From positions 25,862 to 58,340 of the forward strand of contig MU271370.1 of assembly GCA_021432655.1 (NCBI GenBank): DNA of 32,479 nt, written 5' to 3'. Shown piece after piece: positions 1,709-12,990 of the stretch; the stretch's first letter is position 1, and each line of letters opens with the position of its first letter. This stretch comes from Atractiella rhizophila (Eukaryota). The notes beneath the pieces were generated by a model. It searched no databases. It was not told where the DNA came from and was given only the letters and a program-made list of their open reading frames with translations. Both the position numbers and the translations under genes were made by a program.

Positions 1709-2006
1709 TTGATAGAGATGACACGAATTTTCCATTTTTCGCTTAATGCTATCGTTTCCATCTTATCTAGAGTTCATGCGTGGTCAAAGAGATTCGATGC
1801 AGAAGAGGCGAAGCCTATATTATGGGGAGGAGTGCTCTTGGGTAAGCTAACAGGGCCTGCGCTCCTGTATTTGTCTCCGTATAAAAAAGCAATATAGACA
1901 TGGTGGCCACTTTGTAGGACGACGATTTTACTAGAATTAAAGAGCCCCTAAGAAATCTATTCCACAGAGTCTAGAAACAATGTGCGAGAAAAATTACGCC
2001 AATGGT

Positions 2007-2972
2007 CTATTTATCTTGCTTCTCTTCGACCTTCATGCGCAAAATTTTTGCTGCAGCCTACGTCAGCGTAGTGCGTCAGTCGAAATCTTCGTAGCTGGAG
2101 GTTAACTCACATTCCTCATATGGGGCTCTGCCTGGGACACCCCAAGTTCTTTCGCCGCGAAGTACTGCCGATAGGCGTCCTCGATGTGGCCAGCTGCTGA
2201 GATGTGAGCTCACAGAAGGGAGCTGCATGAACGGTTGACGTACCACTTTCGAGTACAGCGCCAAGGTTGAACCTCACCTCCCCATCCTGAGGTTTCAGTT
2301 CTACGGCCTTCTTCAGATGTTCGATTCCCTTCTCGGTGTTTGGAGGAGTGCCAAAAATGTAACAGGTGGCAAGATTGTTGTGACAAGAATGGGCATCTGC
2401 GCTGTCTGGATCTAATTGAAGTGACTTTTCAAAGTGTGCGATGGACTGGGAAAGATTTTTGAGCTGGAAACTAGAAACAGCGACTGATGAGTGTGAAGAA
2501 AGGCAAGAAAGAAAGGAGGCAAACCTGACAACTCCCAAGTTGTAAAACACCAAAGGAGTTTCTTTGATCTTTCTCGCTTCCTCAAAGGCGTCTCTCGCTT
2601 GCTCTAAACTGTTTACTTCAATAAGACTGACAGCTATCGCCATCCGCTACATATAAGTTATCGCTGCAGTGGTGACAAGCGACTACAGCAAGGACTAACC
2701 CTTGCCCATCAATTTACGATACATAAAGTCCTCTGGCGTATCATTTGGCGCTAATTTGGGAGGAAATTCAGAGTGAGATAAACCTTCTGCGTGACGCTGT
2801 ATTGATTTGGAGAATGCGCGAACGCTATTAGGGAATGAAGTGCGCAGAGGGCGAGCTGGCAGTGGAGTGTCAACGTCAACTCTGTTGAGATGGAGAATGA
2901 CCTACCAGAGTGAACAAAAGCAGAACGAGCTGCAGAGGCTACTCTAAGCAGAGATTTTGTGGCGAGAGGCAT
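2007..2972 (-). CDS. TPR-repeat protein with a predicted mitochondrial presequence (6 exons)
   Basis: ATG at 2972. The N-terminus is Arg/Ser/Ala-rich and acid-free (MPLATKSLLRVASAARSAF). The spliced frame gives TPR-like helices: LEQARDAFEEARKIKETPLVFYNLGV, IAHFEKSLQLDPDSADAH, HLKKAVELKPQDGEVRFNLGAVLE, GHIEDAYRQYFAAKELGV. The last exon AAAKILRMKVEEKQDK ends at TAG 2009-2007. Confidence 0.8.
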
Positions 2973-3393: not shown

Positions 3394-6300
3394 TCAACGA
3401 GACCAAGTTGGGGAAGAGTTATATCTCGTGCCACCGTTAGTCGACCCAAGACCATTAGTTCTCCCATTGGTTGCTGGAGAAGTCGGCGTGAACGCATTCG
3501 GAGAAGTCGGACTCCATGCTGGAGACTTCGGTGACATGCCGTTAACACCATGCATCTGAGGAGATGTAGGACTATCCGACATGCATCAGCTTCAAGACGA
3601 TCAAGAGGGGATGGTAAAAGTGCGAACCTGAACGCTGGGCTAGCAGGCGAGTATGTTGGTGAAGCTTTCGGTCCCCCTTGTGATGGAGAGAAAGCGGGGG
3701 AGACGGGGGAGAAGCGAGGAGAACTTGGAGAGAACCTTGGCGAGGCAGCTGCAAAGTTCGGGCTAGTTGGCCTGTAATTTTGTCAGGTAAAGCCAACAGA
3801 TGCAAAAAAAAGTGACGAACGAGAAACGTGGACTTTGAGGGCTGAAGGAAGGAGAAGTTGGACTGAATCTTGGAGACTGGGGACTGAACCTTGGGGAGGA
3901 AGGACTAAAGGCAGGGCTAGCGGCTCCCCATCGACCAGTGGATGCACCAGTTGGGCTAAAGTATTTCTAAGCAGACTGCATGATCCGCAATATGAAACTT
4001 ACCGTCCCATAGGAGAAGTAGGACTGAACCGCGGACTGCTGGGAGAAAACGCCGGAGACGCAGGTGAAGCATGTATTCCCGGCGAGGTGGGGGAGTAGCC
4101 AACAGACATGCGATCCACCCAGGGTGACTGTGCACCGTAAGGGCTCGCAAACGCTGGGGATGTGCCACCATATCTTGGAGAAGTCGGACCATACGAAGGA
4201 CTGTTAGGGGAGTAGTGCGGACCTAAATACGAAGTTAGGCTTATACCCTTGAATTGCAGAAAAGCTTCTCACTAGATGGACTGTATCCAGCAGCACCGCT
4301 CCCGAGACCAGCCCCGTAAGGTGAAGCTGCACCATAACCAGAAGCGAAAGGATTAGAAGGTCCAGTGAAATCCTCCTGACCAGGATGCACGACGGGTGAG
4401 AACGCAGCCATAGGCAAAGCCTCTTCGTAAGGTCTCGCAGGCGTGCGACCATCAGCGTAGTCTGCGTAAGGTGTCATTGCCCCACCTGGGGTCATTGCAC
4501 CGTCGATTCCGTGAGGCATAAAAGCGACCGTTGGTAGGCGATGGTCGACAACGACGTCCTTCAATGCCTCGTCATCAAGTGCAATCTCGAAGCAGCCGGT
4601 TCCCATTGGAGCAACTTGACCAAGTAAAACATTCTCCGCCACGGCTGTGCAAGCGTCCTGCTCTCCGTTCGCCGCTGCGTCCATCAAAATTTCCACTGTC
4701 TCTTCGAACGAACACCTCATCAAAGCTCCAGTCTCAGCTCGGTTGATACCGTGGCGCGTAATAGACATGAGGGAACCACGATTTGTCATAAGATCGCAGA
4801 GAAGATAGAGATGGCGGTAGTTGACGTAGGACGATTCGAACTCGATAACGTTGCGCAACTCTTGAAAAACTGATGCCCTCGCCGCTTCGATCCCCAGCGT
4901 ATCAAATATCTCCACACAGTTGTTCGAAACTGTCCGACGACTATCGACTCCATCTACGCAAAGCACTTTGCGCAGATTCGTGCCATCCGTCTCCAACACC
5001 CACTCAACATCACCAGCGGGGTTGAACTCGCCAGCAGGTGTGATGGTAACCTTTTTCTCCTTGATCATGTACACCCTCTCGACGCCTTCGACGCCACGTA
5101 ACGTGATACTCGACAGCATGGACTGCTCAAGTTGCTTCAGAAAAATGTCTTCCTCTATCTCGATATCGTCGTCGTCATCTTTATCGCGCAACGGTCGACA
5201 ACGTATAACGAGCTTTTCGGCAGTATCCTCAGACCACATGACGAAGAGATCGTTCTGGAAAATTTCCGAAATCTTCCCAGCAACATACGCCATCTCCAAG
5301 TTCTTGTCCAACATTTTCGCACGATCCAACTCAAGGCGAAGGAGCCATTCGGACTGTCGGGTGATATTTTGCTCCATTTCCTCATCCGGGATGGCGAAGG
5401 TGGCTTCCACAAAGTCACGATCCTCTTCGATGATGGTCGTCGTTGGATTGGGGTCGTAGAAAATTTGCGATGAGGAAACTACAGTTCGTAAGGTCGTATG
5501 AGCGAGCTCCGTGGAGAGCTGTTTCGCTTTTCGCTGGTCACTGGCTATTTCTGGGCTGAGGAAGACTTTGAGAGACGGTGTCTTGATGTTACGAGCGACG
5601 TTGATGATCTCCTTCAAGCGAGGTACTCCTAACGTGACGTTCTTGCTCGACACACCGGCGAAGTGGAAGGTGTTGAGCGTCATCTGCGTTGCAGGTTCTC
5701 CAATCGACTGAGCTGCTAGTGTACCACACATCTCTCCTGGGTGGACTATCGACTGATTGAACTTTGACTCCACCTCTCCAAGTACCCACTCGAACGCTTC
5801 CTTGTTCAAGTGAAACTCTTGAAGAATGCGCTTAGACGCAAAATTTGAACGAACAAGAATCTGAAACATCAGGGTTGCATTCTGCTGCGCTTCCTCTGTC
5901 AGGGCATCATCCCCTCGGACGACGACCAGGCGTTTGAGAAGCTCCTGGACGCCAACGACGATATCAGCAGGAGGGAGGTCGGAAGGCTTTCGGACATCGA
6001 TATGAAAGATTTGTTGCGCATTCTTGAGGATACGCTTGATGTTGACCGGGAGGGCTTTGCGGTTGCTGCCGTCCTTGAAGATGTACGTCCGAAGAAGCTC
6101 CCTGTCCTCGAGCAGTTGTCGGTACTCCTCATCGAGGAGGGCTTGAAGGTCGATCGAGCTGTCGGCCAATCCAATTTGCAACGTCCCCTCCTTAAACCTC
6201 CACGCGGGATCCATCACGTCAACTTTGTACATTCGGTCGAAGTCATCGTTCTTCAAGCGAACATAATCGATATTCTGGAACTCCAACATCGCTCCGTCCA

Positions 6301-9300
6301 TCCCATCTTCTCCATATACAAACTGCACGACATCTCCTAGGGAATTTCGCACCGTCCCATCGTACGAAACTTGCACATCCTCCAAAGCCTTAACTAGTCG
6401 ACGCTGGATGTAACCAGTCTCAGCAGTCTTGACGGCGGTATCAATCAAACCTTCTCGTCCAGAAACGGCATGGAAGAAGAACTCCTGCGGAGTCAGACCT
6501 CGTAGGTAAGAGTTCTCGACGAAACCTCTCGATTCTGGGGAATAGTCGTCCTTCGTAAAGTGAGGGAGAGTGCGGTACTTGAATCCGAAAGCGATGCGCT
6601 TTCCTTCGACGGCAGACTGACCGACAAGTGCGGACATTTGGGAGATGTTGATGAAAGTACCCTTCGAACCGGCCGACACCATCTGCTTGACATTATTGTC
6701 GTCCTTCAAACTGACTTGTGCCTTCTTTCCTGCATCGTCACGAGCCTTATCCAAAGCTTTCCGCACTTTCGCCTCGAAACTCTCCCGGATGGTCATTCCC
6801 GGTTCCTGCTCCAACCTATCCTCCTGCGCCATCTGAATCAAGTTTGCAACCTCCGCCTTCGCATGCGAGACGAAACCCGTGATCGCCTCCATAGTCCCTT
6901 TGTCAGGGACCGTGTCACCGATGCCGATGGAAAAGCCGTTGTGGAGGAGCCAGTAGTTTACGACGGTCTGAACGCCACCAATGAAGATCTTTGTCGCCTC
7001 AGCGCCACGTTCGCGGAAAATAACGTGAACCAAACCTCCTTGAGCGGAAGCACCGACGATACCCTTGTTGAGGATGCCATAGATCAACTCGCCGTCATCA
7101 ATCAGGATGGACTTGTCCTGGTAAGGAATGCTCGTCGGGTCGTCCTCGTCGCCTTTCTCAAGGTTGATCCCTGCCGGGATGAGCATGGAGATGATCTGCT
7201 TCCCAGTCCAAAGCGGCTTCGGCTTAAGAATCGTAGGAGGAGGGACGACACCATCCCAATCAGGGACCCAGAGGAGGATATTCTGCACGAATTCGCGATC
7301 CATAAAACAGTCGCGGAGGGTGAATTTGCGAATGCCGAGGAGGGTGTCTTGGATGATACCCATTACGGGTCGGTTGGACTGAGGGGAGACAATCTGTTTT
7401 GAGACCGAAGCGATCTCCTTCAATTCAGCACGCGTTTCCTCTGACTGAGGAACGTGCAAGTTCATCTCGTCGCCATCAAAACTGCAAGCAAGTTAGTGAG
7501 TTGCCTGCAAAACAGGCTATACTCACTCCGCATTATAGGGACTGAGCGCAAAGCGAAATGGAAAGGTCAGTTAAGAATAGAAAGAGTCAGAAAGCGACAT
7601 ACGGCTAAGACAGATTCAGTAACAAGCACCGATGAAAAGATTGAGAGAACCTACAGTTACAGAAAGATTCAGACGGAAAGTAGAATAGTGCATAAGCTTC
7701 ACTCGATGTGCCACTGATATCACTATCAACACTGCACACACTTTTCAAAAGGAAGAGAGAGACTTACTCATACTCATCTTATGCAAACTCGGCTGCCGAT
7801 TGAACAAGACGTAATCCCCATCCTTCAGATGCCTCTCCACGATCCATCCGGACTGTAGGATGCATTCCTGCCTTCTATTATACCTCAAATCTATTCGATC
7901 CCCGGTATCCCTGACGACATATCGTGCTCCTGGATATTCGTTCGGCCCATTCTTCACCAAATTCTGGAGATAGTCGATGTTGTATGGAGTGACACGCTCG
8001 GGGTACGTTAAGTTCCTAGCAATCGAATAGGGAACACCGACTTGATCGAGGGCGAGGTTGGGATCACCGGTGATGACCGTTCGAGCCGAGAAATCGACTC
8101 GCTTTCCCATCAGATTGCCTCGTAGACGTCCTTCTTTTCCCTTCAGACGAGCCCGGATGGACTTGACGGGTCGACCAGACTTCTGGAGCGCCTGAGGTTG
8201 TCCTGGCAGGTCATTGTCCATGTACGTCGCAATATGCCACTACATCCTCAGTTGTCAGCTTCAAGCTTCGATAAAATATGTCAGTAGAGAGAAAACAAAC
8301 CTGTAAAAGACTTTCAGCTTCCGACGTAACATGACCTGGTGCACCCTCACTCTCCAACCTCTTTAGGTTGATGTTGGCTTTCAGGATTTCCGCAAGCTTG
8401 TAGGTCAAATCATCCTCGCTCCTCAACATTCCAGTTGAGATGGAGGGTCGTACAGGTGGAGGAGGGACGGGGAGAACGGTGAGGATCATCCACTGGGGAT
8501 GGGCCTCGGTAGGATGCAGTCCGAGCGTCAGAAGGTCTTCGTTCGGAATCTTCCGAAGGAGTTGGAGACAAGAACCTGCACTGAATTGACGACGGTCCGA
8601 TTGAGGCGCTGGGTTGTCCTGAGGGTATGGAATGTGTCAGTCATGTGAGCATACATGACTGGGAATTGTGGGAAATAGAGAAGTATAACTCATTGAAAAA
8701 CGCGAGGAATGAACAATAATGTACAACAAAGCTTTCAAGCAACACAGGATCGGAAGCTCTCTTGTACACTGAAGTGCCTCTGGATTGAGAGTCCAACAAC
8801 GGAGTTCAACTACAAAGACTGCTCCAAATGTAAAAGAGAGCGAATACGAAAGTCGTGGCTCAGGCGAGTCAGCGACAGAAAACACATGCTCCGTCACGAA
8901 ACCATTGTTCTTCATTGTAAGACGAGACACGAAAAATGGACATACCTCACTCCTTTTCTGATTGTACACCAAAAACAGCTTCAACCCCTCCCTCCTAATC
9001 AACGGCTGAGCATGTCCGCAACCTCCATGACCCTTCTTCTCCGGTTTGGACGGATCGACCGTCTCCGGATCTGGGTCCTCTTCGCAGATTCTCCGTGTCT
9101 TAGCAATCTTGTGCACCTCCGCCAACCTCTTCGCTGGATTGCGTGTATGTCGTAGGATGGAGACGATACGCTGGTCGTCGTACTGGTTGATGAGGAGTTT
9201 GCCACATTGAACGCAGATGGATTCGAGGATCTTCTTCATTCGTCCAAGGAAACCAATGTGATACACAGGTGCGGACAGCTCGATGTGACCAAAATGCCCA

Positions 9301-9624
9301 GAACCTGTCCGAATCACGATAGAGTACATGAGCTCCCATGCTTCTCGCCACCCTTCCTTTCTGGAGACACGAAAAAAGGGACGTACACTCTGTCATTCCC
9401 TCTCCGCACGTTGCACACTTAAACTCCCTCTCAGTAGTCCCCATCCTCCTATCCGCCAAGCCTCCCGTCTTCACCTTCCCTGCCAACTGACCTCCCTCCT
9501 CATAGACCTCCGCATGCTCCACCTTGCACACACTCAATGCCTTTATCTCGTGAGGGGGTAAAACGCCAAATTGAATGAGGTTGGGCCGTCGGAGAGGCGC
9601 TTTTGAATGAGGAAATGAAGCCAT
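3394..9624 (-). CDS. RPB1: DNA-directed RNA polymerase II largest subunit
   Basis: 12 phase-consistent exons: 9624-9387, 9304-8946, 8618-8301, 8239-7768, 7713-7655, 7604-7603, 7541-7527, 7481-4273, 4222-4003, 3955-3821, 3771-3628, 3571-3394. Motifs: CATC...[41 protein letters not shown], bridge helix [20 protein letters not shown], trigger loop [13 protein letters not shown]-terminal SP heptads. Confidence 0.98.
3440..4290 (-). repeat. Degenerate RPB1 CTD heptad region interrupted by four introns
   Basis: The spliced translation has about 6 Tyr1 heptads (e.g. [14 protein letters not shown]), about 13 Phe1 heptads (e.g. [21 protein letters not shown]), one WSPTSPN and no exact YSPTSPS. Confidence 0.85.
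7603..7604 (-). other. 2-nt micro-exon (CC) of RPB1
   Basis: Minus strand reads tcttag|CC|gtatgt, flanked by a 50-nt intron (7654-7605) and a 61-nt intron (7602-7542, CTGAC branch site). It is needed to read SVT-P-PYNADFDGD. Confidence 0.85.
8619..8945 (-). other. Unusually long (327 nt) RPB1 intron 2 with internal hairpins
   Basis: gag|gtatgt at 8945 and ctcag|gac at 8619. The other RPB1 introns here are 45-82 nt. Confidence 0.8.
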
Positions 9625-11772
9625 TGAAAGGAACTCGACAAACAGGAACAAGGAATCGAACGAAACTTTTTCTTGTTCTTCTCGAGAATTTTTCGATTTT
9701 TTTCAGAGAATTAAGAATAACACGATTAATAGAAAGTAAAACTGACGCGTTGTCGAGAGAAATACGAAGTTTTCAAGGGATTTAAGAGTTCAAAACCGAA
9801 TCCGACCCTTTCCCCAGAAAATCTCTCTAAAAATTCCGATTTCTTCTCCCAGTCTGGTCCCAGTGCTTCGCAGATGTCCTTCGTGCGCTCGGAAAGAGGT
9901 TCGGAGGCGTGTGAAGGCTGGGTGAGACGGTGTGATGTCGAGGTGTTGGTCGAAAAGGAGAAAACGGTGGCGGCATTTCCGCAGCAGTTTCAAACCACCG
10001 TCATGACTCGCCTCCGCTCAACAATGGGTTCAGCTTCTGTCCCGGTTTTCAAGGCCTTCATCCCTTACAATCCATTGAGATCGTATGAAAACGATATTTA
10101 TGATGTTTCTTTGCTTATATCACCCTTTTTCACGTGTCGGGAAGTTTTCTCCCAGCCCAAAACAGGCTGGAGAAGTGATGTGCCTTATTCACTTTCCGAT
10201 AGCCTCGGATAGGGTTTTTGCGCATCGATTTGCTTTCACAGGAGTCGGCTTGATCAGAGAAAGTCTTCACTGCTTGCGCTGAGATACTTTCAACGAAGTT
10301 CTGTGAAGCTTCAGCGAACAAAAGCTCTGAAAACAGACAACTAAACTGCTCCTCTCGCTCTTAGTAGCTAACCTCAAACCTCTCTGAATACCCAATACCC
10401 GCGCTTCTGTTTCCAACCTATCTTCACATGGGAGCACATCCATGTTTGTCAATCTCAAAATAATTGGAAAACAGGCAAATTTGTCAAGAATTACAACTCC
10501 TTTTGAACAAATCAAATAATGTCACTGCAAATTGTGCCTTCTGTAAATCCCCGTCGAAAATACCAACTTTTCCATAAATTGTGCGAATTCAATGGACAAA
10601 CACACCGTGCCAACCTAGGAACTAGTAATATCTTTGAAACTCGACATCGCGAGTTGAACCTACTGTAAATAGTAGTCTGCATGGTTTTGAGTCAAACTTT
10701 GTCACAGCCAGTAGAGCTTGTTCCTCCAGTTTCTTCGCGTCATTATCTTGACACCATGACGGTGCAGTATGGCGTTGATTGAGCAGAACACTTTCTGTCC
10801 TTCACCAGTGAAAAGGTACAAATCATAGGGGATCCAGTCATGGACAGTCATTACTATCGTATTGAACACAGCTGGGTCCCTTTCCCCCACCTCTAGAGAC
10901 TTCACCAGTTTCATGTTAGCTGAACTCGTAGCCTGTGCTGTAAGTGGATTGCAGGTGAAGGGGGGGCACTGCATACAGGAAGGTGAAAATCCGAATCGGA
11001 CAGACTTACGTCTGAGCAATTAAGCGCTTTTTTATTACAAGGGAGACCCGAGCTCTGGGAGCAAGATTTCGATTTAGCAGGTTGTTATCGTTTCTTTGCC
11101 TTTTGCGACTCAAAAACTCTCAACATCTCCGAGTCAATATTGCCAGTGCTGACCCAAATATTGCGCAACGCTTCTCTGAAGAACTGAGGAACAAAGTTTC
11201 ACAACAGAGTCAGCAACAGAGTATTAGAACAGGGTTGGTACTGTTAAGGAATGGCTGTGCCAAGGTATGCTCCAGGCGTCCCTATGCATAGACTATGCGA
11301 GGACACGGGTGTTCAGGTTAGGGATTCGAACGCTCAAATTCCCCTCTGCCCCCTTGGCCAACGATACTCTATCACTCTCTTTGGCTCATGCTCTCCTCGT
11401 AATGGCGAACCGTTCTGATTTAATGCTCTGTTTCTGCTAAGTCATAGGGTCTGAGGGCACAGATGGTAGTTGGACAAGATAGAGTGGCAAAGTAAGGCCA
11501 CGGTCAACGCGATGGCGAATTTGCATTTACCTATCTTTCGATCTTGCTAGAAGATTGAATGGACGGAGCACGGGGCACATGTTGTGTACCATTACGTTTA
11601 CAAGCTGGAGCAGGAATAATAGAATTTCATTGTAGTGTGAGAACCAATGCTTCGTTCTAAACCTGTCACAGCTTCAAAATCACTGAGCTTGAGAACCCTG
11701 GAAGGAGCGCAGTTTCTTTGGCAGGAGATGATGAAATCACGGCCGCGCCGTTATGCGAAAGCAATACCTCAT

Positions 11773-12990
11773 CTAATTTGCCACACCGTGGATTACTGTG
11801 ACCTCGAGGACAATGAAAACAACATAGACAAGCAACATAGCCACGCCAATCCAGCGGCAAAACCTGGCTCCAAACCACACCGTCAGGGTCAAAGCCAGCG
11901 TCGACCCCCAAAGAGTCACCAATTCTGACATCGTCACATTGCCTCCATCCAGTACACCCGTAGTGTCGACCATGACAATGCCCACACACAGCGACAGAAG
12001 GAAGATGTTGCTGCCGACACAATTCGCGACTAGAATGCCAGGGTGGCCACGGTAGCCGCTCATGACAGAGACGAACTTCTCGGGCAGCGTGGTGGCGATG
12101 GAGAGGATGACGACGCCGAATAGAACGTCCGAGATGCCAAACTGGTCTGTGATATTTGCCGCTGCTTGGGAGAGGATGTAGCCGGCGAGACCGATGGCGA
12201 GGAATCCAAATAGTAGGTAGAGACCATGATATCCTAGAGTGTGGCGTCTGCGAAGCTTTGACGGAACCGACTGAGGTGTGGCTCCTAGGTGGTCTGGTTT
12301 TACATTCGGCACGCGAGAGTTGATGAGCGGATCTGTCTCTGTAGCCTCCACTCTACTCGCGGCAATTATTGCTTCAGAACTACTGTGGCGATCACTGTCA
12401 ACGTCAGAGTCGCTGTCTGTGTCGCTATCACTGTCGCTGTCGGAATCCTGAGGTGCGGTAAGGATCCCTCGGCCAATGGCCAGGCCTACGAGCAGAAGAT
12501 AGATTCCAAACGTGGCGATGAGAAGAGGGCCACACAGCTCCCAGACGACATGCGTTGGAAAATAGAGAATTGGGACGACGAAAGTCGTCAGAGCGAGCAA
12601 CACGAGCGAGTATACCCGTGCGCTCTTGTCAAATTGGGTCGCCCTCCCCCCCTCAAAGGATAGCAGGCCGAGTGAGAAGGCGCCCAAGATGTTGGAGATG
12701 GCGGCGCCGATCACGTTGCCCATGGCTAGGGAGGAGCGGCCGTGCGCCAGGGATGCGACAACGACTGCAAGCTACGTTGCATTAATACTAGTGGTTAAAA
12801 GGTAACGTCGAACACTTACCTCTTCCCACTCCCCGCCGGCAGTGAGGAGCCCAACAACGGTCTCAGGGAGGCCTGTACGACGCGCAAATACGGCCGTGTG
12901 ATGGATGAATTTATCGGCCCCAAACTCGAGGAGGAACAGTGCCGCTAGGAAGGTGGCACCGTTGTAAATGATCACGTCAGCGTCCATCAT
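11773..12990 (-). CDS. CaCA-superfamily cation/Ca2+ exchanger (Na_Ca_ex, YrbG-like), 2 exons
   Basis: Exons 12990-12820 and 12771-11773, with a 48-nt GTAAGT..TAG intron. Alpha-1-like GEWEELAV...AMGNVIGAAISNIL and alpha-2-like IATTLPEKFVS...ANCVGSNIF repeats, multiple hydrophobic segments and an acidic (DS)n central loop at ~12391-12447. Confidence 0.88.

Follow-up and report, generated by a model that had tools for sequence, protein, structure and literature searches.

The gene for the largest subunit of RNA polymerase II in Atractiella rhizophila, a Pucciniomycotina fungus living in roots, raises the question of whether its active-site motif is assembled through an exon of only two nucleotides and, if so, whether that exon regulates anything. 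A sequence-only reading of the locus had proposed both, and had further suggested that skipping of the exon serves as an autoregulatory switch for the level of the polymerase. The window analysed is a stretch of 32,479 nucleotides of contig MU271370.1 (assembly GCA_021432655.1), and all coordinates below are positions in this window.

The RPB1 coding region was placed by homology search at 3394..9624 on the minus strand, and no second copy was found in the assembly, where the remaining largest-subunit matches were assigned by motif to the Pol I and Pol III paralogues. The large exon on this strand (4272..7481, lower end approximate), which was delimited by sequence and homology and starts inside an Asp codon, matches RPB1. 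The best of the 120 matches listed is 100% identical to it and is named Atractiella rhizophila by its source, and after this top match the matches listed include rusts and Microbotryomycetes at ~66-71% identity to the RPB1 exon. The gene has the Rpb1 domains given in the Pfam list of its public protein model, P0001, together with a spliced NADFDGD motif and repeat-like tail exons. The C-terminal repeat region (3394-4272, minus strand) contains several introns, and its repeats, which include SPRFSP-type units, look degenerate and do not form strict heptads. A partial RPB1 labelled Rhizopus, P0002, ranked second by bit score (2086) at an identity of only 59%, a score that may stem from an internal duplication in that model. 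In the neighbourhood, a 332-codon stop-free frame at 11773-12771 on the minus strand resembles a membrane-protein gene with a D/S-rich linker and is apparently intronless, in contrast to the intron-rich RPB1 beside it.

All features of the active-site cluster lie on the minus strand, and re-reading the sequence showed that the coordinates, phases and splice signals first assigned to 7482..7713 are exact. In the direction of transcription, a 54-nt intron (7714..7767), seen as spliced in the RNA contigs of three of four runs and common in position to relatives, is followed by a 59-nt exon (7655..7713) that ends in phase 0 after NLSVT. A 50-nt GT-AG intron (7605..7654), in phase 0 after LSVT and at the same position in six of six related loci, leads to the micro-exon CC (7603..7604), which provides positions one and two of a Pro codon; this Pro stands two residues ahead of the Tyr of YNADFDGD. 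The micro-exon is created by a 61-nt GT-AG intron in phase 2 (7542..7602), and is followed by a 15-nt exon (7527..7541) that completes the Pro codon, encodes PYNA and begins the first catalytic Asp codon with two bases. A 45-nt GT-AG intron, also in phase 2 (7482..7526), then splits the first Asp codon of DFDGD, as had been proposed. These exons and introns were called from the sequence and recur in the RNA contigs described below. With its two canonical GT-AG neighbours, CC falls within the size limit for an internal micro-exon (<=15 nt), and its donor is the canonical GTATGT. The 113-nt gap between the 59-nt and 15-nt exons holds exactly one AG-NN-GT site, and a YAG-(CC or TC)-GT site leaving both introns at least 40 nt long arose by chance in 0.64% of 200,000 shuffles. 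The predicted fold of the whole cluster (7482-7654) was not notable (z -1.08).

Use of the micro-exon was assessed in assembled RNA contigs over positions 6200-9700 from four of 24 listed runs (X1, X21, X22 and X23); such contigs can drop rare forms, and the growth conditions of the runs are not given. One contig in each of X21, X22 and X23 (depth 669.9, 9.93 and 29.1, respectively) joins 7655 to 7481 through exactly 17 letters, which are identical to the predicted micro-exon plus the 15-nt exon. Skipping of CC would leave 15 letters at this joint, and the path of the public gene model would leave 23. Depth in X21 was 0 in the bin 7487-7603, while the bin 7604-7720 stood at the depth expected from its exon portion only (337.8 = 669.9 x 59/117). 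The X22 contig differs from the window at five positions within 6996-7481, in the downstream exon, which indicates that a second allele or strain splices in the same way. X22 and X23 come from a single study, and the material of X21 may be that from which the assembly was made, so that the three runs amount to at most two independent sources. Run X1 gave no contig spanning the joint, and an X1 contig at 7293-7505 that reaches 24 bases into the 45-nt intron was set aside as it could be DNA. The CC-containing joint predicted from the sequence was thus found in three of the four runs: the 2-nt exon is real and included, and it is present in the mature RPB1 mRNA, which codes for the normal VTPPYNADFDGD motif.

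The route by which the two bases enter the mRNA is also constrained. The bases at the exon edges are GT and AG, not CC, so the two C's cannot derive from a shifted exon edge. Thirty open splice paths keep exon 7713-7655 whole, 16 of them using GT-AG introns only, and just one of the 30 yields the observed mRNA. Frame-restoring paths other than the micro-exon do exist on paper, which the sequence-only reading had missed, and RNA was therefore needed to decide between them. The public model P0001 takes one of these, an open GT-AG path that uses donors 7650 and 7522, omits the micro-exon as had been predicted of gene finders, and reads VVPIMRSDFDGD at a garbled catalytic motif. Were this deposited protein genuine, the polymerase would carry an altered motif, but its 23-letter joint is at odds with the 17 letters seen in all three bridging runs. 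It would also change residues that are invariant in the homologues: among the 120 matches listed, 106 hold DFDGD, and 105 of these read [PS]PYNADFDGD, the sole exception being the public model of the present gene. VTPPYNADFDGD itself is the reading of 87 of the 120, and the 14 without a DFDGD motif are fragments or broken models. The public-model path is refuted as the main form of the RPB1 mRNA, and we give next to no credence to its being a genuine path. It is slightly less far-fetched, though still extremely improbable, that the assembly is at fault, the two bases lying in truth at an exon edge beside a single 113-nt intron and the AG-CC-GT site being there by chance. The genomic sequence of 7542-7654 is that of the assembly; such an artefact would however require that two bases were lost precisely at a splice junction, together with a chance site of the rarity given above and a canonical GTATGT donor. 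Lengths of 50 and 61 nt are also closer than 113 nt to those of the neighbouring introns (45-61 nt) and of the intron in the relatives (59-71 nt). Introns of 82 and 327 nt are likewise spliced within RPB1 in the RNA contigs, and length alone would accordingly not bar the 113-nt intron that skipping would produce.

A pattern search that required an intron in the Asp codon identified six related metagenome loci (L005-L010) comprising three distinct sequences; further scans of genome contigs and viral contigs with the pattern returned no more. The Asp-codon intron is common to the six by construction of the search. This does not apply to two further introns, one in the MSM|M region and one after VT, which all six share with Atractiella at the same places. 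In each, the same 17-base coding content follows one 59-71-nt intron as a single undivided exon, and the AG-NN-GT pattern is absent from that exon in all six (three distinct sequences), contrary to the conservation that a check of relatives was meant to look for. Both outer introns and the split Asp thus correspond to those of Atractiella, and the differences are that these Microbotryomycetes-like loci have no internal intron and no 2-nt exon, and that their first codon is Ser, not Pro. In a tree of 25 rows and 235 columns, L005 grouped with Rhodotorula (100/97) and L009 with Phenoliferia (99/96), both Microbotryomycetes, and Atractiella fell on a long, unresolved branch; L008 (53 residues before the next intron) and the near-duplicates L006, L007 and L010 were left out. 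As judged by this sequence comparison, the bases of the micro-exon are, among the relatives examined, the first two of a 17-nt exon kept whole.

The 61-nt intron would then probably have been gained in the Atractiella lineage, two bases inside the older 17-nt exon. Gain in this line is the simpler story, although the relatives come from one clade and do not polarise gain against loss. The usual site of intron insertion is AG|G, and the insertion point here, CC|T, is not of that type. The 61-nt intron showed no likeness to the neighbouring RPB1 introns, so that an origin as a duplicate of one of them had no support in the comparison, and it has no second copy in the genome, which led us to reject an introner-like repeat. 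A less likely history is that the intron dates from early in Pucciniomycotina and disappeared in Microbotryomycetes, which would make the micro-exon an ancient conserved feature. The restriction of the comparison to one clade leaves room for such a loss, and intron loss is the most frequent way in which plant micro-exons disappear (PMC8831610). RPB1 models of rusts break near the micro-exon site in three of 22 named records. The motif is intact in the other 19, which would be less expected if all rusts had the 2-nt exon; this indirect evidence, from protein models, hints that rusts are without it. In the three defective models (P0008, P0014 and P0133) the catalytic motif is missing or garbled, probably because small exons there were called wrongly. 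An apparent phase-2 intron also lies just before YNADFDGD in the Pol III-type (L002 ~1905-1955, plus strand) and Pol I-type (L003 ~1990-2040, minus strand) largest-subunit genes of the Atractiella genome, one and three codons before the Tyr, respectively, as against two codons in RPB1; these positions were read from sequence only.

Taken with the RNA contigs, the comparison makes it very probable that the micro-exon is a constitutively included 2-nt spliceosomal exon of RPB1, derived from an extra intron in an older 17-nt exon and joined by stepwise splicing. Each short intron would be recognised across the intron, and the two that flank CC would in all likelihood leave one after the other, because a 2-nt exon is too small to be held by two spliceosomes at once. 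The 61-nt intron may be removed first, a matter on which we are evenly divided; this order would rebuild the ancestral 17-nt exon and delete the sole acceptor that permits skipping. It is here a guess from predicted folding: among eight donors folded, that at 7602 was the least paired (0.93 unpaired, as against 0.28 for 7654 and 0.02-0.09 for 7526), but 109 of 500 shuffles left donor 7526 no more accessible, and for this donor the contrast is not significant. Introns flanking plant micro-exons are removed consecutively, the downstream one mostly first (PMC8831610). The earlier proposal of ordered, intron-definition splicing is made plausible by these plant data, but no intermediate was seen in the contigs. 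The 45-nt intron is predicted to form a hairpin (-16.7 kcal/mol, z -2.47) in which its donor hexamer pairs beside the branch site; six of 200 shuffles reached this hairpin, which was the best of nine introns folded. The form was not common to the relatives and was not significant in a context shuffle, and the hairpin is a weak lead. Beyond the supply of two bases the micro-exon would have no function, and any rare product of skipping would be an error that NMD removes.

The more far-reaching proposal was that regulated skipping of the micro-exon, coupled to NMD, tunes the level of Pol II; a switch of this kind might also sense elongation rate. In silico, skipping does create the premature stop that had been claimed, at codon 485, and retention of any one of the three cluster introns stops the frame at codons 488-495, so an alternative isoform with a premature stop is available on paper. 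The genome also has UPF1 zinc-domain matches on two contigs, and in wild-type RNA a skipped form would be hidden by NMD. In Cryptococcus, NMD targets alternative splice-site events that shift the frame but for the most part spares retained introns (PMC5006051). Against a switch, neither a skip joint nor an intron-retaining form of the cluster is listed among the contigs of X21, X22 and X23, the three bridging runs, although infrequent forms may be lost from contigs. Elsewhere in the gene X21 has minor forms: besides the retained 327-nt intron described below (~16%), a joint 9305-9388 at 84.2 beside 2993.3 (~3%) and a letter at 8076 at 22.3 of 563.3 (~4%). This suggests, short of proof, that skipping lies below a few percent; contigs can lose 2-base variants, and NMD would deplete them. 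The exon is not conserved in the six related loci (three distinct sequences), and a stop upon skipping is the default for such exons, being the outcome in 63 of 89 Coprinopsis gene models (PMC12230235). Fungi have comparatively low exon skipping (PMC6142364), and the mostly open-access literature searched yielded no paper on RPB1 autoregulation through splicing and NMD in fungi. The inference of a switch is not upheld by these results, and we regard it as very unlikely. A checkpoint of wider scope appears equally doubtful: the three introns packed at active-site codons could make slow or mis-ordered splicing yield RPB1 mRNA that NMD clears in step with Pol II activity, a feedback of the polymerase on its own largest subunit, helped by the hairpin at 7526 and perhaps sharing control with the 327-nt intron. 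The two UPF1 matches (G000 C351 ~39743-40175 and C32 ~128912-129344) are near-equal and represent a duplicate gene or two alleles.

The 327-nt intron itself (8619..8945, minus strand), known from the RNA contigs, is partly retained in X21, at a depth of 211.1 beside 1098 for the spliced form (~16% of the summed depth). Its length is a multiple of 3, and the frame stays open through it for 102 codons until one stop near the branch site, an open frame equalled in 0.9% of 20,000 shuffles (post hoc). Its predicted fold is better than those of 99 of 100 shuffles (z -2.52), and it has no Rfam match and no second copy in the genome. The one Rfam match over 7300-10200 scored 18.1, far below the 45-bit cut-off, and was rejected. 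If regulation is sought, this intron is the more promising candidate; the micro-exon is most likely constitutive, and nothing shows it to be a regulatory switch.

Autoregulatory unproductive splicing coupled to NMD occurs in splicing-factor genes. RPB1 resembles these in that it could on paper give a frame-breaking form and that the genome has UPF1; it differs in that an alternative form was not seen, the exon is not conserved and no feedback route is known. Closer parallels are found among tiny exons. In Coprinopsis cinerea, 57 exons of 2 nt occur in 50 genes, and the 63 of 89 models mentioned above are those with an exon of <=3 nt that gain a stop upon its omission (PMC12230235). The RPB1 exon is likewise an internal coding 2-nt exon of a basidiomycete whose omission leads to a stop and to a broken model, but it belongs to another subphylum and adjoins the Pol II catalytic motif and a 15-nt exon. 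The earlier statement that a 2-nt exon in an essential gene is rare was overstated for basidiomycetes, where such exons are already documented, and the present one is ordinary in kind. The plant genes APC11, which is essential, and VPS55 have 1-nt micro-exons (PMC8831610); these too are sub-codon exons of housekeeping genes, missed by annotation, confirmed by RNA and merged into a larger exon in some lineages. Unlike the RPB1 exon, which has one form and is not conserved in the relatives examined, they are conserved throughout land plants, and in VPS55 some isoforms include the exon and others lack it (PMC8831610). No report of the present exon was found in the literature searched, which was mostly open-access and makes this a weak negative.

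The finding corrects a public gene model whose altered Pol II motif could pass for real divergence, and contributes a 2-nt exon, confirmed by RNA, whose near-complete inclusion is required because the gene is essential and single-copy. Far greater importance would follow only if regulated skipping were shown. As it stands, the RPB1 exon is a clean natural substrate for the study of minimum exon size and of the order in which flanking introns are removed, and the relatives with an undivided 17-nt exon make it a simple case for dating the birth of a micro-exon.
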